Shown one piece after another: positions 8,242 through 49,505 of a stretch of 64,000 nucleotides of DNA. The notes below the pieces were generated by a model. That model saw nothing but the letters and a program-made list of their open reading frames with translations. It ran no database searches and was not told where the DNA came from. Source of the DNA: a virus; the IMG/VR virus record IMGVR_UViG_3300032322_002195, positions 44,838 through 108,837 of that record, one strand, 5' to 3'. The translations under genes were made by a program, and so were the position numbers. How positions within the stretch are numbered: the stretch's first letter is position 1; every line of letters begins with the position of its first letter.

Positions 8242-8638
8242 GATATTGTTGGTTATAATTTAATATTAGGTCTTTTTCATATAACTTTTCTTCAACTTCT
8301 TTTATTTTTTCTCCAAATTTAAAACAAAGTCTTTTTTCTGGATATGAGTCATAAGCATTAATGTTTTCCCATGCCAATGCAATAACACCATCAACAGCAT
8401 CCCATACGGCAAATGTGTCACTGTTTTGAATAACATCTAATTTTAATTCAGACTCCAAACGTCCAACTTTTTTAATAAAATTGTCATGAGGGGCTTGTGG
8501 TCTACCAGAAGCTGGAAAAGTATCCCATTCTTCACCATCAATATTTTTACTTGTATCTGAAAATATAAATTCAAACAAGTAATTACCTTGATAGTTTTTG
8601 CCAACCATGTTAACATATATGAGATACAAATCTTTCAT
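8225..8638 (-). CDS. hypothetical phage protein
   Basis: 137-aa ORF translationally coupled to neighbours. Confidence 0.65.
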   Translation of the reverse strand: MKDLYLIYVNMVGKNYQGNYLFEFIFSDTSKNIDGEEWDTFPASGRPQAPHDNFIKKVGRLESELKLDVIQNSDTFAVWDAVDGVIALAWENINAYDSYPEKRLCFKFGEKIKEVEEKLYEKDLILNYNQQYHGETK

Positions 8639-10224
8639 TATTTTTCAGCTTTTGGGTCTGGTTGAACGTTAGGCATTGGAAGAAAAGGTTTATTTTTTCT
8701 ACTTGGTATGTTTGGTTCACTAGGTTTGGTTTCAGGTGTTACTTTAGGTTTGACAACTGGTTCAATAGTAGGCTCTATCATAATATCATCTTCTCTGAAT
8801 GTTTCTCTTAACATATTTTTAATAATGTTTTTAGGTTCAAATATACTTAAATTTTCTGATATAGACAAGTTCTCGTTGCTCTTTTTCCCCCAACTTTTAC
8901 CTTTTTTAGGTGTACCACATGCTGAAGGTGTTGGCCTACAAGCTGGATATTTTCTATTTTCACCTTCTTTTCTACCACAAGGTTTGCATTTTTTCCTACC
9001 AGTTTTCTCATCTGTTCTACATGTGTTGCAATCTACCCAACCTTGTGATTTTCCTTCACCACCTTGTCTAGAAAACCACCCATGAAGACCCTGTTCTTTT
9101 TCTTTAGAAAAATCAGTCTTTTTAGACTCATTCATTTTTTCATCTTTGGCTAAAAATGCATCAATCCACGCTTGCAATTCATGAACATCTGGCGCATATT
9201 CCTTTCCCTTTTTTCTAGTGATAGCACTATGAGCCAAATTAATTAATTCTTTGGTGTATTCTTCAGATTCATTTGTTTTTTTTCTACCTTGACAATGTGC
9301 TCTTTGGCTAAATCCTTTTGGATTGTTGCAATCTATGCTTCTTTTGTATTTTTCAGACCATTTTTCTTCAATTGAGGCTTCTTTCAAAACAGAGATATCG
9401 TCATAATCTGAATTTAAAATTTTTATTTGTGTGTTTTTAGCAATTACATTATGTTTATCATCAACATAAATAAAAGGACTAGTCCATAAAATTAAATCCC
9501 CTAAATACATCACCATTTGGAAATGATTTGTTGGATTTTTAGATTTATTTTTAAACTCCACTTCTTCAACCCCACCAACTAAATCATTTGATATCTGATA
9601 TAATAAATGACGAGCCACGTTTTCATTTATATCAGCCAAATTATCATCATAGTCAATTTTCCACATAGGAATCCACTCTGTTTTCATTCTTTCATTGAAT
9701 TTTTTGAATGGGATTTTATATGATTTTATTTTTTCAATTATTCCTTTTATTGTTTCATCTTCAGACTCATTGGTTTTATTTCCCCAATTAGCAGCACCGA
9801 CCTTACGACATTGAACTAGCGAACCTGAACCGTAGGCACTTGGCCATACATCATATCTAGCTCTAACTTTATAATAACAAGCGTCTTTTTTACCTTTTTT
9901 CTTTTTTCCTTCTTCAATTGCTTCATAAACAACCAAATCATCATCAAACTTTGTTTCAATAATTTCCACCATCAAATCACCAGAACCCTTAATAACTCTA
10001 TGAAAAGTATTCTTAGGAATAAAAAATTCTTCATTAACATTTAATTTTTTTGGTAACTCATTGTCAAATTGTACCAACCAATCGTTTTCATTTAAAGGAA
10101 TTACAATTCTGTCTTCTTTATCACGATGCCATACCAATTCATCACTTTCAACAAGATTTGAGAAAGTTCTTCTAATCACATTACCATTTTTTTCTTCACT
10201 ATATGGTTTCATATTACTTTTCAT
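8638..10224 (-). CDS. modular protein: N-terminal cupin-like domain plus several basic Cys-containing modules
   Basis: WHRDKEDR...FIPKNTFHRVIKG cupin-like signature; modules DACYYKVRARYDVWPSAY, KWSEKYKRSIDCNNPKGFSQRAHC, WVDCN..PCGR..YPAC separated by xNE/xEE. Confidence 0.65.
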   Translation of the reverse strand: MKSNMKPYSEEKNGNVIRRTFSNLVESDELVWHRDKEDRIVIPLNENDWLVQFDNELPKKLNVNEEFFIPKNTFHRVIKGSGDLMVEIIETKFDDDLVVYEAIEEGKKKKGKKDACYYKVRARYDVWPSAYGSGSLVQCRKVGAANWGNKTNESEDETIKGIIEKIKSYKIPFKKFNERMKTEWIPMWKIDYDDNLADINENVARHLLYQISNDLVGGVEEVEFKNKSKNPTNHFQMVMYLGDLILWTSPFIYVDDKHNVIAKNTQIKILNSDYDDISVLKEASIEEKWSEKYKRSIDCNNPKGFSQRAHCQGRKKTNESEEYTKELINLAHSAITRKKGKEYAPDVHELQAWIDAFLAKDEKMNESKKTDFSKEKEQGLHGWFSRQGGEGKSQGWVDCNTCRTDEKTGRKKCKPCGRKEGENRKYPACRPTPSACGTPKKGKSWGKKSNENLSISENLSIFEPKNIIKNMLRETFREDDIMIEPTIEPVVKPKVTPETKPSEPNIPSRKNKPFLPMPNVQPDPKAEK

Positions 10225-10666
10225 TTTTTTCTTGCCATTTATATGAAATAGAATCTTCTTTAATAGGTCCTCCTTTAGCCCATGTTCTACAGCTTCTAGC
10301 CGAATGACACTTAAAATGATGCATCCAACAATACCCTAATCTTCCATCTTCATCAGAAACTGGCCCTGGCATGCAATCATCCATTCTCGGAGATATATCA
10401 AAAGCAACGCAATTTCCACATTTAGATTCCATAGCTGCTTCAACGCTAGTATTCCAATGGTCGGCTATCTTTTCCCAAAAATCAGCTGGTTCATCAACAT
10501 TTAATGGACCATACTGAATATGTGGTTCGTTTATCGCAGCATCTCTATTTTTGGTGTTTAATTCCAAATCTTGAGTTGCTTCAGGACATTCCATTTCTGG
10601 TTTGCCCAAAAGTTGTCTGTTTTTACGTTCAATTAAACGTTGTTTTTGTTTTGATATTCTGTTCAT
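10214..10666 (-). CDS. Cys-rich putative metal-binding protein
   Basis: CGNC..F, GYC, C..W pattern; likely start ATG 10666 (MNRISKQ). Confidence 0.6.
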   Translation of the reverse strand: MNRISKQKQRLIERKNRQLLGKPEMECPEATQDLELNTKNRDAAINEPHIQYGPLNVDEPADFWEKIADHWNTSVEAAMESKCGNCVAFDISPRMDDCMPGPVSDEDGRLGYCWMHHFKCHSARSCRTWAKGGPIKEDSISYKWQEKNEK

Positions 10667-10680
10667 AATTAATATTTTTT

Positions 10681-12381
10681 TTACCACCATGTACCACCAC
10701 CAGCTAAACCTAATGATTTAGCATATCTTGGTAAACGACATGCCCAGTAGCCTGGAGATGTTCTATCAGTCTTTGAAGGACAGTTATGTCTATCAGAAAA
10801 AGCTTTTCTAGCTTTAGGGTCTCTTAATTTAACAGCCAAGTTACCACCACCAGATTTAGCACCGAAAGAAACTTTTTTAATGTTACCAGACTGAGGGTCT
10901 CTTACATAAACATAAAATTTCTTTGAACCACCTCTTTTAGGTTTACCTAGTTGAACTTTTTTACCTTTGTACTTGGCTTCATTTAAAGTTCTATTATTCT
11001 CATAATTTTTTAAATCGCCAATAACAACATGTTTACCGTTTTCAGCATTATATTTAACTATAAGCGTTTCATTCCCTTTATCATCATCACCTATAAAATA
11101 GTTTACATTATCATTGCTCAAACTAAAATATAAATTTCTACCATAATCGTCTTCTTCACCTGTCATTACTTTATCCCCAGACGCTGATTCGATAGCTGAT
11201 TTAATCCAGTCAAAACTCTCCTCAAACTCTTCATAAATAAAGTTCATTTTTATCTTCTTACCTTCAATTATGATATATTGATTATCAAATTCGTTAACAA
11301 TAAAACCATCATTCTCATTAAGTTTGATTAAACCTTTTGAATATAAAGCTTTAACTTCTTTAATTAAATTGAAAAATTTTTCAGAACCAATTCTATATAT
11401 CGTTTCATTCAAAGGTATTTCATTTTCAATATGGTATTTTAAATCATCTGAAATTGGTGTTTCTGTATGCAATTCCATTGGTGCCGACCATTCATCTTCT
11501 GAATCTACGTGATAATCGTTCAATCTACCCTCAATAAAGTGATAAACTTCTTCAACATCATCAGCTGAAGTCGCTATGTGGTCCAAAGCCCAACCATGTC
11601 CATCTGATAATAAAGCATCAACCTCATCATAATTCATTTTTAATAATTCACCAGCAGCGTGATGGATTGTTTTTAGATTTTGCCAAAACATGTAATTGTT
11701 TGATTCTCTTTCAATTGGATTGTGTGTTTTTTGATATTCAGCCTCTTCGCTACCTTCTGGCGCAAATATGCTTAATTTTTTAGGGTTTATTGTCATCATA
11801 TTTTCTTCAATCCCCTCTTCTCCACCAAAATCTAAATTTTCATCATCCGATGGCTCTTCTGCTGGTTGCTCATCATCCATAGGCTCTTCCGCTGGTTGTT
11901 CATCATCCATAGGCTCTTCTGCTGGTTGCTCAGATGACATATCATCATCTTTACCAGAAGATTTAACTTTATTAATAATGTCTTTTTGGTCTTCAGCATC
12001 CATTTCAGACGTATGGGTAGCTGATAATAACGAGTTAATTGCAAATTTTTCTAATTCAAAATCTGGTTGACCTTGTTCCTCATTATATTTTCTGAGTGAT
12101 TGACCTAACTTTCCAGTTAGTTGTTGGATAAATTTCTTTGGGTCTGATTCCTCGTCTGCCTCAACACCAGCATCAAATGGCTCATCATCAAATGGTTTAT
12201 CATTTGATTTAGGTTGCTCCATAGGGGCGCTATCAACAGATGCTGGCTCTTCAGCTGGGGCTTCAGCTGGGGCTTCAGCTGGTTCTTCAACTGAAGCCTC
12301 TACATCTGGTTGACTAGACGCTGGTAACTTTAATTTGTATTTTGTTTCTTCGTCTAAATTACTTTTTAGACTTTTTTTTTT
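10681..12381 (-). CDS. acidic modular probable head protein; frame is open 53 codons upstream of the first ATG (12222), back to the A10 run
   Basis: upstream in-frame KKKSLKSNLDEETKYKLKLPASSQPDVEASVEEPAEAP...; C-terminal basic module KKFYVYV...KVSFG...RHNC...GYWAC. Confidence 0.65.
   Translation of the reverse strand, partial: KKKSLKSNLDEETKYKLKLPASSQPDVEASVEEPAEAPAEAPAEEPASVDSAPMEQPKSNDKPFDDEPFDAGVEADEESDPKKFIQQLTGKLGQSLRKYNEEQGQPDFELEKFAINSLLSATHTSEMDAEDQKDIINKVKSSGKDDDMSSEQPAEEPMDDEQPAEEPMDDEQPAEEPSDDENLDFGGEEGIEENMMTINPKKLSIFAPEGSEEAEYQKTHNPIERESNNYMFWQNLKTIHHAAGELLKMNYDEVDALLSDGHGWALDHIATSADDVEEVYHFIEGRLNDYHVDSEDEWSAPMELHTETPISDDLKYHIENEIPLNETIYRIGSEKFFNLIKEVKALYSKGLIKLNENDGFIVNEFDNQYIIIEGKKIKMNFIYEEFEESFDWIKSAIESASGDKVMTGEEDDYGRNLYFSLSNDNVNYFIGDDDKGNETLIVKYNAENGKHVVIGDLKNYENNRTLNEAKYKGKKVQLGKPKRGGSKKFYVYVRDPQSGNIKKVSFGAKSGGGNLAVKLRDPKARKAFSDRHNCPSKTDRTSPGYWACRLPRYAKSLGLAGGGTWW
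11848..11931 (-). repeat. 30-bp coding tandem repeat x~3 (QPAEEPMDDE)
   Basis: GGCTCTTCYGCTGGTTGYTCATCATCCATA repeated on + strand. Confidence 0.8.
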
Positions 12382-16397: not shown

Positions 16398-18896
16398 ATG
16401 AACAGAGATGTATATCCTAAAGTAAAGATTATTATTAACGAATCTATGAAAGAAGCTAAAACCTTCAATGATTCAAAAGTAAGACCAGAACATTTGGTTT
16501 TATCTATCTTAATGGATTATGATAATGAATGTGTTAAAGCGTTAAATTTTTTAAATGTAAATACATCAGAATTATATGATAGATTATCTGACCACCTTAA
16601 AAGAAGCGATATAAATCCTAGAATAAATGTATATTTAAAAAAAACCATTCCATTTTCAGATGAAACAAAAGTTATCATAAAATCTTTGGATGAAGAATGT
16701 GAAAAATTAAATGACAATATGATTGATACGATTCATATTATGTTGGCCATTTTGATTAAAAAAAATGAAATAAGTGAAATGTTAAATGAATTTTATGGTG
16801 TTACATATGATAGTTTTAAAAATGTTATAAAAAATATGAAAGAAGAATACAACAACGCATATGAAGGTGACGAAATAAATGATGAGAATGAATCATTCAA
16901 AAAGAAACCAAAGCAAAATGATAACAAAAGTAAAACCCCAGTTTTAGATAATTTCTGTAGAGACGTATCAAAGGCTGTTGAAAAGGGTGAAATAGACCCA
17001 GTTGTTGGGCGTACTGTTGAAATAAAACGTGTTTCACAAATTCTTTCTAGAAGAAAAAAGAACAACCCAATTTTGATTGGTGAACCAGGCGTAGGTAAAA
17101 CCGCTATTGTAGAAGGTCTGGCTCAATTAATAAAAGATGGTAACGCACCTAGAACACTAATTTATAAAAGAATTTTTACATTAGATTTGGCTTCATTGGT
17201 TGCTGGTACAAAATATCGTGGACAATTTGAAGAGAGGATGAAAGCCGTTTTGGAAGAATGCAAGGCCAACCCAGATATAATTCTTTTTATTGATGAATTA
17301 CACACTATTGTTGGTGCTGGAAATGCTTCTGGGTCATTAGACGCTTCAAACATATTCAAACCAGCTTTAGCACGTGGTGAAATACAAATTATTGGTGCTA
17401 CCACATTGGATGAATATAGAGAAAATATTGAAAAAGATGGTGCGCTTACCAGACGCTTTCAACAAGTATTGGTTGAAGAACCTACATTGGAAGAAACAAA
17501 AACCATTCTAATGAACATCAAAGAAAAATATGAGAAACACCATAAAGTAACTTATACTGAAGAAGCTATTGATGAATGTGTTAAACTATCAGCTAGATAT
17601 ATAATGGATAGGTCTATGCCAGATAAAGCAATTGATGTTTTGGATGAAGCTGGTGCAACAACAAATGTTGTTTTAGAAAAACCAGAAAAAATTAAAGAAT
17701 TAGAAATAAAGAAAAATCAAATTTTAGAAAAGAAAAAAGAAGTTGTCTTAAAACAAAAGTATGAAGAAGCTGCTAAGCTTAGGGATGATGAAAGGAAAAC
17801 TCTAGACCAACTTCAATTAGCTATGAATGAATGGAATGAGTCTTTAGATAAAAAAACAACTGTTGTTGGTGTTGAATTAATCTCTGAAGTTGTATCAATG
17901 ATGACAGGAATTCCTTTAACAAAGATTTCAATTCAAGAAAGCAAAAGATTGATTAATCTAGATAAAGAATTAACTGGTAAGATTATAGGTCAAGATGATG
18001 CTGTTATTAAAGTAGTTAAAGCAATTAAACGTAATAGAATTGGAATCAAAGATAAAAATAAACCTGTTGGAACCTACATTTTCCTTGGTCCCAGCGGGGT
18101 TGGTAAAACTTTATTAGCAAAATTGTTGGCTGAACATGTCTATGGGGATTCTGATGCTCTTATTAGAATGGATATGTCTGAATATATGGAAAAACATTCT
18201 GTTTCTAGAATGGTTGGAGCCCCTCCAGGTTACGTTGGTTATGAACAAGGTGGACAATTAACTGAAAAAGTTAGAAGAAAACCTCATTGTGTTATTCTAT
18301 TCGATGAAATTGAAAAAGCACATGAGGACGTATTCAACCTACTTCTTCAACTACTAGATGAAGGTCACTTGACTGATGGTTTGGGTAGAAAGATTAATTT
18401 TAAAAATGCTTTGATAATAATGACATCAAACATCGGTGTTAAAGAAGTAAACTCTTTTGGTAAAACTTTAGGTTTTGAAACGGCTGCTTCTATTGTCAAC
18501 GAAGAAAATAAAGCTCGTGATATCATTGAAAAAGCTTTGAAGAAAAAATTTAGACCAGAATTTTTAAACCGTATTGATGAAGCTATTATTTTCAGGGGTT
18601 TAACTGAAGAGGATATTCATAAAATAATTTATCTAGAAGTTGAAAGTTTAGAAAAAAGATTAAATGAATTGAATTTTAAACTTAAAATAAGTAACGAAGC
18701 TGTTGAATTTTTAGCAAAACAAGGATACGATGAAGCTTATGGTGCTAGACCCTTGGCCAGAGCAATACAACACTATGTAGAAGACGCTATTGCGGATGAA
18801 ATACTAAACGAAACAATAAAAGAAGGTGAAACAATTTCAATAGGTTTAGATAAAGAAAAAATAACGATAAAATCAATAAAATCAAAAACAAAATAA
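16398..18896 (+). CDS. clpC: ClpC-type AAA+ chaperone/protease ATPase subunit
   Basis: Clp N-domain, GEPGVGKT and GPSGVGKT Walker A motifs, UVR-like [23 protein letters not shown] ClpP-docking loop; start moved to ATG 16398 because a TAtaTTTG promoter lies just upstream. Confidence 0.92.
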
Positions 18897-38315: not shown

Positions 38316-38394
38316 GGTTAAATGGCGTAGCTGGATAGCGCAAGGATAGTGGCAGACCCCACCCTTTACACAGGTTCGAATCCTGTTTTAACCA
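38316..38394 (+). ncRNA. tRNA-like RNA without a canonical anticodon loop
   Basis: acceptor GGTTAAA/TTTAACC-A, D-arm GCGT..GG..GCGC, T-arm ACAGG-TTCGAAT-CCTGT; central AAGG-ATA-GTGG-CAGACC-CCAC-CCTT. Confidence 0.7.
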
Positions 38395-38496
38395 CGAATG
38401 CAGTTCAAATCTGCTCGTTGACTGAGGTTATGGTAAGTAGACTATTGAGGTACGCACTCAACTTAGAAATAAGGTAGAATGAAGTGAACAGTCAAA

Positions 38497-38550: not shown

Positions 38551-38991
38551 TATTTTTTTAGGTTAATGAATCTATTTTTTGTTTCACCTTTTAATCGGTA
38601 ATTAAATTTGAATCCAGAGCCATCTTCAAATTCAATCATTTGAATTGGGAGTTGGAAAGAGAAGTGGTTTTTTTCTATTTCTGATATTGCTTGTTGAAGT
38701 TTCATATTAATTTATTTAAATGTTATTGAATATAAGAGCCACATAAAGCAGAGTAAATAGGGAACCCAAAAAGATTATTGGGTAATAGAACTCTAATGGA
38801 TTTGATTTCCTTTTTTGGTTTAGGGATGATAAAACTTGTTTCATTGTTTTGATTATTTAATTGATAGGACAAAGATAAGCAAATTAATTTAAACTACCAA
38901 ATTTATTTTGAATTTTGAAGACCTACTCAAATATTTTATTAAAAACCAATTGGTTGCAAAAAGGTATGTATATATGATAGTTATAGGTAAT

Positions 38992-39162
38992 TTAAAAACT
39001 GACCATGTGCCAAATTTTACATTCTATATCTAATTTAAGTTGTTGCTCTTTAATTTTGCTTTCATTAGCCCAGTAATATTTCCAAAATTCATCATCTGAT
39101 TGAAATTGTCCTATTTTTATTTCTTTCGTTTCAGCAAAATTAAACATAAAGTACTGTTTCAT
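38992..39162 (-). CDS. cassette-borne hypothetical protein (56 aa, below ORF-track cutoff)
   Basis: MKQYFMFNFAETKEIKIGQFQSDDEFWKYYW... fills cassette 1. Confidence 0.55.
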   Translation of the reverse strand: MKQYFMFNFAETKEIKIGQFQSDDEFWKYYWANESKIKEQQLKLDIECKIWHMVSF

Positions 39163-39284
39163 AATTCAGTTTTTAAACATACCTATAACAAAGTGTATAA
39201 GTAATGTGGCTAAATAAATTTAGTTCTAAGTTGAAAGTATGTGCAAAGCCACACTACTCATACACTCAACCGTTAGCGGTAATC

Positions 39285-39545
39285 TTAAAGACACTCCGCA
39301 TATTCAATATATTCTTTATGCCTTTGTCTAAAATGATTGAGATGCCATTTAGACCTTTCAATAAATTCTTTCGGTGCATTTTTACTTTCGAGCCAATAAA
39401 GGTGGTTCTTTTCCTTTTCAATCATTCTTTCGACAAAAGGTATTATATCGTTTACCATTTGCTCCTTGAAAGAAAGACTACCGCTAACAACAGGTTTATT
39501 CAATGCGGGTTTTCTGCTCCCAAATAACATTTTTAGTAATTTCAT
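39285..39545 (-). CDS. cassette-borne hypothetical protein starting inside the attC-like site
   Basis: ALNKPVVSGS is encoded by the attC arm and core site. Confidence 0.6.
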   Translation of the reverse strand: MKLLKMLFGSRKPALNKPVVSGSLSFKEQMVNDIIPFVERMIEKEKNHLYWLESKNAPKEFIERSKWHLNHFRQRHKEYIEYAECL

Positions 39546-39622
39546 ATTTTCTGCTTTTAAGTTAATTTATCTGTTAATTCTAGCACTAAATAAACCTGCG
39601 GTACGTTAGCAGAAAAAGTTTG

Positions 39623-39913
39623 CTAAAACCTCTTTCCACAATTATTGCAGTGATAACCTCTATGAGTTCGTACTCTGTCTTGGGTACTGTGAAAGCAAAC
39701 TTCATCTGCTAACACAGTACATAACTTTTTTTTTAGGTATTTAATTACATCAGCCCAATATTCATCATTAGGAGAAAAACCTATATTTGATGCTATTTTT
39801 TCGGCACACCAAATTGCTATCCTTATCGAAATGGCTTCTTTTGTTCCTCCTGAAGATGGTGCATATTCATACGCTTCATCAATTAGTTTTTCTGCTTGTT
39901 GTTCTACTGTCAT
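39623..39913 (-). CDS. hypothetical protein with cassette-derived Cys/His C-terminus
   Basis: junction VLAD = GTGTTAGCAGA core site, then CFH...YHCNNCGKRF. Confidence 0.6.
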   Translation of the reverse strand: MTVEQQAEKLIDEAYEYAPSSGGTKEAISIRIAIWCAEKIASNIGFSPNDEYWADVIKYLKKKLCTVLADEVCFHSTQDRVRTHRGYHCNNCGKRF

Positions 39914-39969
39914 TACTTGTCGTTTTTAACTAATCATAATTGATTATTTGATAAGACAAAGATAAGCAA

Positions 39970-42706
39970 TTAATTTGAATCTTCCAAATAAAATTTTACA
40001 AAAGGTTCCATCTTAAATTCCTTTACAAATTCGTATTGTTGGTCTTTTGGGATTACATCCAATAATTCTCTTATTCTTGGTGTATCGTTAATTAAAAAAC
40101 CACCAGTCATAAATTGTTGTCCATCTTTTTCAATAGCTGCTAAACTATTTGTTTTATTGATAGCATTGGCCAACAATATAACTTCTTCATATCCATTTGT
40201 GTCAGGTGTAATGTGTAAAATTTTCATTTGTTTTGATTATTTAATTGATAGGACAAAGATAAGCAAATTAATTTAAACTACCAAATTTATTTCAATCGTC
40301 ATCTCTCTCAAATTGCGATAAAAAATTTTGTACCTTATCGTTTAAATCTTTATGTTCTTTTTTTAATTTAGAATGATAACTTTGATAATAGTTTAAACCA
40401 TCAATAAGAGCTTGTTGTTCGCTTTTGGCATGAATTGCTATATTAAAACCAGCTACGTTATCCCAAAGATAATACCCATCCGTACATTCTGTCAAAATTA
40501 GTCTATCAGTTTTAAATACATTTCTAATTGCTTTTCCCATGATTGATTTTTTGATAGGGCAAAGATAAGTAATTAATTTGAATCTACCAAATAAAATTTG
40601 ATATTATTTTTATTTACTGGGGTTACATAACCTTTTAAATAAATTAATTCATTTTCTATTTTGATTGGAACAAATATTCCACCATTAATATAAACCCTGC
40701 CAACAATCCTATATGGTTTATTTAATTCAATGTTTTCTATTGGTGTTTTGGTTGCCAATAAATAAGCAGCTGTCATACTCATAATTGATTATTTGATAGG
40801 ACAAAGATAAGTAATTAAATTGATATAAACAAAAAAGGGTGAAAATATTTTCACCCAATTTATCATCAATCAAAACGCTTTTATAATGTTGGATATTTTT
40901 CTAGGAATTCGGTATAAACTTCATTAGGATTAATTTCAACGCTGGTATCTTTATATTTCATTACCAAATATTTCACAAAATTAATTTTATGATTGATAAA
41001 TGAATTATCATTGCCAGCAATTATTTCTTGAATATCATTTAAATGTGATGCGATGATTAGAGATACTTTTGCCATGTTGTTTAATTATTTGATAGGACAA
41101 AGATAAGTAATTAATTTAAACTACCAAATTTATTTTTGTGGAATAGTTACTCTTGTTAAGATAAATTCTTCTTGAAAATCTCCATTATCCCATTTGATTT
41201 TTGTTAATTGGAATTGTTCTTCTTTTGGTCTAAGGGAATTCAAGTATTCAACACGACCCATTTTAACACCTTGTGAATTTTTTCCTGAGTGACCAATTCG
41301 GTTAAATTCATTTAATTCCTCTTCGCTTAAGAAATCTAACGTTTTACCATTAACATGACCCAATGAGGTGCTTATTCTAAAATTTTCTATTATCATTTGT
41401 TTTGATTATTGATAAGACAAAGATAAGTATAAAAAACGAAACCACCAAATTTCTTTGATGGTTTCTTTTAAATTAGTTTAAGATTTCTTGAATGCTCGGC
41501 TTATCCAATTCTGCCTTATAATCTGCCAAAATCTTTTCAAATTCGGGAAGACATTCAGCAGCCGTTTTTCCTTTTAAACCATAATAGTCTTTTAAATCTT
41601 TTAGCTTAATTCCTTTGAATTTCATTCCAAGTGAAAGGATTTTAAGATTATAGCGGTGTGTAGCCAATTGATAACCAAAGTAATCTATTTTTTTGTTACC
41701 CATTGAAACACTTGGTGTACTTAATTCACCATTTCTAACTTGTTGTTGTGCTTGTTCGAATTTTGTCATTGTTTTAATTATTGATAGGGCAAAGATAAGT
41801 AAATTAATTTAAACTACCAAATTTTTATTTAGAATTTTTTTTGTCACCCTCAAAGACAAACCCACTGGAAAACCACCATAGAGCCAACCTGAAAGACCAA
41901 TAAATATTTCTACCATGATTACGCCCATTGATATAACATTCATAGGCTTTTTTTACTCTGTATTTTGTAATTTTCATACTGCAAAGATAAGTAAATTAAT
42001 TTAAACTACCAAATTTATTTTTTTCCCACCGCACTACTGATAACTTCTAAATCTGAAATTCGTTCCATTAAGGCATCAATCTCATGTTGCATTTTGTCCT
42101 TATCGTCTTCAAGTTCTACAACCGCTGCGATTAGGTCATCAATCTCATGTTGCATTTTGTCCTTATCGCCTTCAAGTTCTTCAATCTCTGCGATTAGGTC
42201 ATCAATGATGCTTTCAAAATCTCTTTTGGCGATATCAACTCGCCTTGATAAACGTGTATTATCCATTTTAAAATTTGTTATTGATTATTGATAAGGCAAA
42301 GATAAGTAATTATTTTGAATTTACCAAATTTATTTCAAAAAAAAAGGGAGAAATTTCTCCCTTTTATTTAGTATGCACTTGTTGGCATATTTTGATTTTG
42401 TTCGTAGCTTTGGCTTTCCCATTCAGAATCTGGGTTTGTAAGGCTATGGTAGTATTGTTTAAGTTGTTCAGCTATTTTATCTAACTTAACTTGTTGTTTG
42501 TCGGTGCAAGGTTTTCGGTAAGCGTTTATTGTGTTATCCGAACAAACCCTACCAAGCAAACCACCACCTAAGTAATTCTGATAACTTGTCATTTTTTCAC
42601 CCTTAAATCCGAGAGTATCCAAAGATATTTCAATTCCACCACCACGTGAAGTAATTTGTGAACGTAGTGTGATTTTTTCAAAGTCGATTTGTTTTGCTTT
42701 TGCCAT
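39970..42706 (-). CDS. run of small single-promoter hypothetical genes (39970-40227, 40292-40540, 40573-40782, 40881-41075, 41130-41396, 41473-41769, 42015-42266, 42368-42706)
   Basis: each ATG lies ~15-30 nt downstream of its own promoter repeat; 42015-42266 has an internal 63-bp duplication. Confidence 0.75.
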
Positions 42707-49185: not shown

Positions 49186-49431
49186 AAGTATTAATTTCAA
49201 TGAACGTGAGACAAAGGTAAGAAATAATTTTGATATTACCAAATTTATTTTACCTTTTCAATGGCTGAAGATATTATCGTTCCTAATATAATTAATAATG
49301 ATTGGGTACCGATAATTTTTAAATAAATTTCGTTTTTATCACTCCAAAGAGCAAGTACGGCTATTGGAAACATACTAAGTAATATCAACCCAAGAATAGC
49401 GTTAATAGTTTTTTTCATTTTTTTGTTTTTG

Positions 49432-49505
49432 TGCGCCCTGCTGGGCTCGAACCAGCGACCTATTGATTATGAGTCAATTGCTCTGACCAACTGAGCTAAG
49501 GGCGC
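49432..49505 (-). tRNA. tRNA with CAT anticodon (Ile2-like; Met not excluded)
   Basis: GCGCCCT TA GCTC AGTTGGTCA GAGC A ATTGA CTCATAA TCAAT AGGTC GCTGG TTCGAGC CCAGC AGGGCGC A. Confidence 0.93.

Follow-up and report, generated by a model that had tools for sequence, protein, structure and literature searches.

A short array of about 0.75 kb, in which two imperfect hairpins separate three cassettes, was found in the genome of a large freshwater phage. The window, that is, the whole stretch of 64,000 nucleotides analyzed, covers bases 44838 to 108837 of a 108.8-kb (~109-kb) IMG/VR virus contig. CheckV rated this contig as 32% complete, and it is therefore probably part of a phage of some 300 kb. 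DNA nearly identical to that of the phage was found in lake-water metagenomes from several studies. The array has a GC content of 31.6%, the same as its flanks, and its features are listed in Table 1. The Rfam scan, run on a database that holds no attC family, matched only tRNAs, among them a tRNA-like gene (38316-38395, plus strand; Rfam tRNA, 46 bits) to which ARAGORN assigned no anticodon ('gg' at position 36) and a normal tRNA-Met (49431-49505, minus strand).

Table 1. Features of the cassette array and its surroundings (window coordinates; R1, covariance model of the site family)
Feature	Position	Strand	Description
Promoter repeat of next gene module	38844-38908	−	65 nt; 100% identical copy at 40228-40292
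Segment 1	38980-39189	−	Ends at 38980 (GTTATAGGTA) and 39180-39189 (TACCTATAAC) 10/10 complementary; 19 nt at 84%
Segment 1 gene	39162 down to 38992	−	56 aa
Site A (attC-like)	39177-39284	−	Hairpin 39190-39271 plus boxes; full-length R1 match
Hairpin A	39190-39271		Stem of 20 nt, 18 Watson-Crick pairs
Segment 2	39272-39488	−	Ends 39272-39286 and 39474-39488 complementary, 15 nt at 93%
Segment 2 gene	39458 down to 39288, stop 39285-39287	−	57 aa; AGGAG-N5-ATG start
Segment 2 alternative ORF	Start at 39545, in the loop of site B	−	86 aa
Site B (attC-like)	39476-39617	−	Hairpin 39489-39604 plus both AAC/GTT boxes; full-length R1 match
Hairpin B	39489-39604		Stem of 16 nt, 14 Watson-Crick pairs
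Segment 3	39605-39713	−	Ends 39605-39624 and 39694-39713 complementary, 20 nt at 90%
Junction piece	39714-39724	−	11 nt, sense strand TTATGTACTGT, preceded by G
96-aa ORF	39623-39913	−	63-66-aa phage gene plus 30-codon read-through
Promoter repeat	39931-39995	−	72% copy of the 65-nt repeat (family D1) with TAnnTTTG box

An earlier sequence-only reading of this DNA had described three adjacent segments with complementary ends and two imperfect inverted repeats between them. All of the complementary pairs were present, the segments starting with GTTA and ending with TAAC, both inverted repeats were real, and the five stems formed by the segment ends and the hairpins abutted exactly. The end of the array was moved from 39713 to about 39723, with 11 extra bases lying between the host gene and segment 3. 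In their plus-strand form, hairpins A and B read TAAC-AA-stem...stem-NNNAC(C)-GTTAG, and with the TAAC...GTTA boxes the two sites measure 96 and 130 nt, within the attC range of 57 to 141 nt. Eleven GTT-anchored inverted 9-mers no more than 250 nt apart occurred in the 108.8 kb, three of them inside these 734 bases, and the remaining eight were mostly A/T-rich runs. A scan of the whole contig for the pattern AAC-spacer-stem...stem-spacer-GTT returned only hairpins A and B as strong hits. The arrangement of complementary ends and hairpins exceeds chance.

The genes in this region are small minus-strand genes, each behind a near-identical promoter repeat with a TAnnTTTG box of the Bacteroidota type, and the repeats frame single-gene modules. 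The repeat upstream of the 96-aa gene would drive this gene together with the cassettes behind it. A scan for sigma-70 promoters and terminators yielded nothing above shuffled sequences. In contigs from two lake studies, position 38867 was joined to 39955 inside the repeat, with 15 shared letters at the joint, and this deletion variant lacks 38868-39954 (1087 bp), corresponding to the 96-aa gene and the whole array. It was the only presence/absence variant seen, stretches of the lake runs lacking contig cover not being counted as absence, and its joint lies between promoter repeats and not at G↓TT. The joint shows that strains of the phage lack the whole module through recombination between promoter repeats, a gain or loss that concerns the module holding the array and not the cassettes themselves.

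The 96-aa ORF at the gene-proximal end of the array was compared with nine orthologues (86-90% identity), which matched residues 1 to ~64 only; most of them stop directly after KYL(K/N)(K/N)K at a length of ~63-66 aa. The conserved part of the gene runs from 39913 down to ~39725, homology with the orthologues ends at the 11-nt junction piece, and the last 30 residues (C-x-H...H-x3-H-C-x2-C) are encoded by this piece and segment 3. The suggestion that the Cys/His C-terminus derives from array DNA beyond the junction was thereby borne out. The stop of a 63-66-aa gene has thus been displaced by the array, with read-through for 30 codons into segment 3. The fused frame runs open across segment 3 to a stop 17 nt short of the end box, an arrangement also seen in cassettes 1 and 2, and no other frame of the segment reaches such a stop. 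Segment 3 may accordingly be a former cassette ORF, deprived of the hairpin and start it once had and now joined to the gene upstream. On this side the array lacks a clean site, the 11-nt piece occupying the place of the hairpin; the piece resembles the 3′ foot of a hairpin site (..CTGYT-GTTA) and is probably the remnant of a truncated one. The proposed purpose of the system, to capture and fuse mini-domains, extrapolates from this single fusion. The Pfam zinc-finger match of the Cys/His tail was weak (E 0.054), Pfam and PHROGs gave nothing significant for the cassette proteins and their neighbours, and the ESM Atlas returned no usable match for the cassette-2 protein. At L231:1052-1400, one metagenome copy of the 63-aa gene is joined in frame to the gene that follows, owing to a one-base difference in the length of its terminal A-run (..KYLNKKNMKKLEL..); in two other copies, L232 and L233, the 63-aa gene ends at that point.

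A search with the foot of hairpin B (AACGTWCCGCAG ... TGYTGTTA) across prokaryote genomes, one for each species, gave at least 120 matching stretches. Among the matches listed, a large share came from Bacteroidota, often several per genome, and included Flavobacterium, Prolixibacteraceae, Lentimicrobiaceae, Chitinophagales, and Bacteroidales; for the listed matches from other phyla, a follow-up scan mostly found no hairpin site. The bacterial loci carry arrays with up to 10 sites per 8 kb, most often 123-126 nt long. Their consensus reads ..YTAAC-GTTCC-stem...stem-T-GTTA.., and successive cassette ends are complementary, as in the window. In the alignment of 80 bacterial sites, compensatory changes were found in 17 of the 18 stem pairs, and one G.T pair was invariant.

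A covariance model, R1, built solely from those 80 chromosomal array sites of Bacteroidota, matched site B at full length with 74.1 bits (E = 1.4e-15) and site A at full length with 53.1 bits (E = 1.4e-10); elsewhere in the window and the 109-kb contig it found no match at E ≤ 10. As the model was derived from bacterial sites only, hairpins A and B belong to the site family of the Bacteroidota arrays. Further viral contigs carried R1 matches, namely, G003 (31.5 kb, 95% complete) with 10 sites, L087 with 7, and G002 and G004 with 4 each, and near-copies of site B were present in L005, L087, and L200. The sites of G003 (IMGVR_UViG_3300033074_000270) form two arrays, at 8418-11520 and 16517-17671, on the coding strand. 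The G.T wobble at columns 33/140 of alignment A2 was present in 80/80 bacterial sites and in both window hairpins, with the neighbouring pairs covarying freely, and is a candidate mark for strand selection or recognition.

Both hairpins are clearly more stable on the minus strand, as several of the G.T or G.U pairs formed there correspond to C.A on the plus strand. The RNA sense (minus) strand gave −42.5 versus −29.7 kcal/mol for the other strand at one hairpin and −35.8 versus −30.2 kcal/mol at the second. The reconstituted circular sites fold as one long hairpin (DNA parameters, minus versus plus, −23.8 versus −18.1 and −20.7 versus −17.1 kcal/mol) with a one-sided bulge of 3-5 nt beside AAC, an inner stem of 20 bp, and conserved G.T pairs. 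The folding ('bottom') strand of site B is the minus strand, which is also the coding strand.

Copies of cassettes 1 and 2 were found in viral contigs that are otherwise unrelated to the phage and in a lake metagenome. The cassette 1 protein (56 aa) has a homolog with 98% aa identity in locus L006, where the GC content is 44% compared to 31% here. Site A and segment 1 are ~99% identical in L006, the match running from AAC↓GGTTGAG, where hairpin A begins on the coding strand, as far as CCTATAAC↓T, and the homology ends at AAC↓G and TATAAC↓T, outside of which the sequences are unrelated. Relatives of the segment-2 protein were found in L003, L004, L005, and L087. The block common to the window, L005, and L087 begins where hairpin B does, at TAAC↓GT(A/T)CCGCAGG, and ends at CCGCTAAC↓G, and site B with segment 2 has three different neighbours on each side in these three; in L003, segment 2 is paired with another hairpin. 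In an all-against-all blastp comparison, the cassette-bearing contigs had essentially just the cassette gene in common with the phage. One lake-metagenome contig contained exactly 39272-39610 at 94% identity between unlike flanks, further lake contigs were identical over 38879-38982 and continued with 631 other letters, and hairpin A occurred alone in different contexts in lake metagenomes. Homology thus breaks at the GTT cores (G↓TT) in L006, in L005/L087, and in the lake contigs, the very point on which the sequence-only reading had staked its case, and the units move with the boundaries expected if their complementary ends come from a G↓TT crossover. From these boundaries, the unit on the coding strand consists of the hairpin, a GTTA-box, the gene, and a box ending in TAAC; on the plus strand the same unit reads G↓TTA...TAAC-hairpin-G, which is the classical cassette geometry.

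Hairpin and ORF types were also reassorted, the window sharing its ORF type with L003 and its hairpin type with L005 and L087. Alignment A3 (window 39235-39650 on the minus strand, L087, L005, and L003) contains a 33-nt leader (GTTAGCGG...GCAAATG) that is 100% identical in all four. Exchange must therefore also take place at the second box or in the identical leader, between hairpin and gene, and homologous recombination across this leader thus shapes the cassettes as well. Excision at the cores was not directly evident in this phage. Copies of segment 3 were found neither in the viral contigs nor in any fetched locus, the cassette-2 protein had no relatives in 185,579 species genomes, and the sole blastn match to phage records was 240 nt of a neighbouring gene in a 462-kb uncultured phage. 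A 15-mer scan of the viral contigs with the end box of segment 2 was set aside, as nearly all of its 85 matches were due to chance and only those in L050, L075, L087, and L067 were relevant.

The genes were correctly noticed to run opposite to the canonical cassette orientation, their coding strand being the folding strand and the hairpin lying 5′ of the gene. In viral contigs, the longest ORF between sites was on the same strand as the AAC-GTTCC...T-GTT reading in 15 of 17 intervals, compared to bacterial arrays, in which it was on the opposite strand (canonical, with the genes on the top strand) in 90 of 112. Inverted ORFs are a general property of the phage version. The one 'opposite' interval of the window was rejected as a shadow ORF, the substitutions in cassette 2 fitting the minus frame and not the antisense frames. 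Among the cassette-2 copies, the minus frame showed 10 synonymous versus 6 nonsynonymous codons and differences by codon position of 6/0/12, indicating purifying selection.

That cassette 2 starts inside the attC-like site, as had been supposed, remained unproven. This cassette has both starts, ATG 39545 in the loop and ATG 39458 in the cassette body behind a conserved AGGAG (AGGAG-N5-ATG). The hairpin-encoded extension, with 0-1 synonymous versus 3-4 nonsynonymous changes, shows no purifying selection, and we lean towards the internal ATG 39458 rather than the loop ATG. An open frame of 35 codons or more follows 20 viral sites, about 12 of which are independent (the window, G004, and L087 carry cassette-2 copies of one hairpin type). 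Among the 20, an in-frame ATG lay within the site in 16 and the GTT box was read as a codon in 14, and several have no later ATG. Given the frequency of such in-site ATG codons, loop starts are plausible as a rule.

In agreement with the earlier observation for the window, the search for intI found no integrase there or in the 109-kb contig, and the PF00589 domain was absent from this contig and from G001, G002, G003, and G005. As G003 is 95% complete and has no tyrosine recombinase, arrays lacking an enzyme are not just an effect of incomplete contigs. In bacteria, a Xer/IntI-like recombinase adjoins sites of the window's family in at least 10 bacterial or MAG loci (10 of ~120 loci listed), and where the layout was read (L163/L223, L220, L158, L103, L127, and L115) the array lies directly downstream of the recombinase and is codirectional with it. 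A XerD-like recombinase at the 5′ end of the array was thus present in bacterial arrays and absent from the 32%-complete contig. The array-associated tyrosine recombinases are 360-391 aa long (L223, at 1147-2322, and L220) and reach 202-234 bits with the XerA/'integron integrase' model. With the IntI model TIGR02249 they score 193-212 bits, below the cut-off of 265, and the alignment comes in two pieces, between which positions 179-237 (the IntI-specific insert) are missing. In five bacterial genomes with such arrays, no protein exceeded the IntI cut-off. Since the associated bacterial enzyme is Xer-like and lacks the insert, the terms 'IntI' and 'CALIN of a classical integron' are too specific.

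A shorter Xer-like homolog of 278 aa (L200:3436-4272; 37-40% identity), a member of the array-associated family, follows the near-copy of hairpin B in L200. This locus (L200:2315-6357) is a prophage-like region of the MAG Bacteroidetes Day2-2_bin-746 (CAIWDF010000098.1) with the gene order methyltransferase-like gene, hairpin-B near-copy, 97-aa ORF starting in the loop of that hairpin, 278-aa recombinase, and 531-aa large serine recombinase. The Xer-like gene of G004, located 6 kb from the array, was rejected as the cognate enzyme, being only 25-29% identical to the array-associated family.

Taken with the R1 matches and with the cassette copies bounded at the cores, the claim of integron-type mobile cassettes with attC-like folded sites held up, and positions 38980-39723 very probably represent a short row of three mobile gene cassettes that belong to the integron-like system of Bacteroidota. 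We read it as integron-like, not as a canonical IntI integron. On the coding strand, each unit comprises the folded hairpin site, GTTA with a cassette-specific box, the small gene with its stop, and a complementary box ending in TAAC. For the recombination chemistry and the acting enzyme, in an array that may still be active in this phage, we infer the following scheme. A tyrosine recombinase would act on the folded single strand, cutting and joining at the 5′-AAC↓G-3′ core (G↓TT on the plus strand) beside the hairpin. The excised circle would re-form one long hairpin from the unit's own two ends, which would be why the ends of each segment are complementary. With a small early gene and its promoter in front of it, the array has displaced the stop of that gene and is presumably cotranscribed with it. 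The recombinase would be supplied in trans, either as the Xer-like enzyme associated with the arrays of the host or as a short phage homolog encoded in the unsequenced two thirds of the genome.

Beyond this, we tentatively propose that Bacteroidota phages keep their own pool of 'flipped' cassettes, possibly using folded sites of the host type and the Xer-type recombinase family. Each site might also serve to start translation, its loop providing the start codon and its 3′ arm the coding sequence for the first ~20 residues, and recombination might swap early genes between unrelated phages and occasionally build new proteins, such as the one with the Cys/His tail. If so, there would be a lineage of integrons whose members IntI-based tools fail to recognize as complete.

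Of the other explanations, a classical integron CALIN, with genuine attC sites served by a canonical IntI from the host or from elsewhere in the phage, fits the AAC/GTT boxes, the cassette-specific complementarity, the G↓TT boundaries, and the 96-130-nt sites. CALINs in virulent phages have been published, including one in a Polaribacter phage, with some sites recombining with IntI1, and the published P12002L_attC1, read on the coding strand, is comparable in layout (AAC-G..stem..T-GTTAGG) (PMC9892861). It is nevertheless unlikely, because the five array-bearing bacterial genomes contain no IntI protein above the cut-off and their recombinases skip the IntI insert, the spacer geometry is asymmetric, and the ORFs are oriented opposite to canonical cassettes, off the top strand. 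Very improbable is the explanation that the hairpins function in RNA, as terminators or in processing or translation control, and are shared by ordinary homologous recombination at intergenic repeats in the manner of T4-type modules. The much greater stability that G.U pairs give in the mRNA sense strand, the start codons often located in the loop, the shuffling of modules in this genome by promoter-repeat recombination, and the reassorted hairpin and ORF variants would all suit it. However, the same sites are antisense to the genes in 90/112 bacterial intervals, so an RNA role is not the conserved function; cassette-specific end complementarity is not explained by a role in RNA, the 4-base core at which homology breaks is the same between unrelated flanks in contigs of different GC content, and the sites are systematically linked to a tyrosine recombinase gene. 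A chance cluster of inverted repeats in AT-rich DNA has next to no probability, for common as inverted 9-mers are in a 31% GC genome (4483 pairs within 2.5 kb), it is refuted by the model E-values of 1e-15/1e-10, the exact abutment of five stems, and the recurrence of the units elsewhere. Two further candidates were rejected: IS200/IS605-type or PATE elements, as there is one hairpin per unit and its sequence differs between units, and dif/Xer modules, as the loops are 35-76 nt and not a 6-bp spacer.

Integrons are viewed as bacterial gene-capture devices defined by IntI. Under the integron-like reading preferred here, a Xer-like enzyme that has no IntI insert appears to carry out the same cassette logic, in a cassette system common to Bacteroidota chromosomes and their phages, and surveys that rely on IntI would fail to count such arrays as complete integrons. 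The copies of cassette 1 (98% identity, GC content of 44% versus 31%) show that small early phage genes move as discrete units between unrelated phages. If active, the system would allow phages to exchange host-takeover or counter-defence genes rapidly and would also give rise to new fusion proteins. The array in the window is small and has no enzyme of its own; its value is that of a clean, well-bounded example with population-level variants.

Three known systems were compared with the array. Promoter/stem-loop module shuffling in T4-type phages was reportedly described by Arbiol et al. in 2010. The phage resembles this in having early genes behind near-identical promoter repeats and a module gained or lost by recombination between the repeats, which accounts for the 1087-bp module indel, but not for the hairpin-bounded cassettes inside it.

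Integrons have been reported in Bacteroidota (PMC8618304). With classical and sedentary chromosomal integrons and with CALINs, those of phages included (PMC4889954, PMC9892861), the array shares single-gene cassettes, imperfect hairpins with AAC/GTT boxes, the lack of an integrase in the array, the G↓TT crossover, complementary cassette ends, and strand-asymmetric folding. It differs in that the recombinase associated with its site family has no IntI insert and in that its sites, as folded, show a one-sided bulge and an invariant G.T, compared to the symmetric unpaired spacer and extrahelical bases of attC, whose fine structure also includes L boxes; the sites are akin to attC in principle, though not in their geometry. 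The phage hairpin moreover lies 5′ of the gene and may carry the start codon, and no attI or Pc was recognized in the window array. In Polaribacter phage P12002L (L238), R1 matched 39113-39254 on the minus strand (32.8 bits, E 6.5e-6), between gp55 and gp56. The attC1 of this phage (30005-30058), located on the strand that codes for the methyltransferase genes, is a 55-nt version of the same box-bulge-stem layout. At the two P12002L sites that Qi et al. 2023 published, R1 gave no match, and the connection with their IntI1 assays is therefore weak.

In rAID-1 of Bacteroidales (Ross et al. 2019, preprint 10.1101/471110), a XerD-family recombinase lies 5′ of a codirectional array of single genes separated by repetitive intergenic sequences, which the authors called 'reminiscent of integrons'; their criterion for the recombinase is an identity of at least 44% to B. 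fragilis BF9343_RS08045. The rAID-1 layout is also that of the bacterial arrays from which the site family of the window was defined. The array in the window, in contrast, is located in a phage, has no recombinase, carries its genes on the opposite strand relative to the sites, and encodes tiny uncharacterized proteins, compared to the immunity genes of rAID-1; in the portion consulted, the published text neither defines the sites as folded hairpins nor reports phage copies. Literature searches returned no paper linking phage CALINs with rAID-1, describing flipped phage cassettes, or defining these folded sites. Phage CALINs and rAID-1 are each already published, and the link between phage and host arrays and the inversion of the phage cassettes appear to be new.
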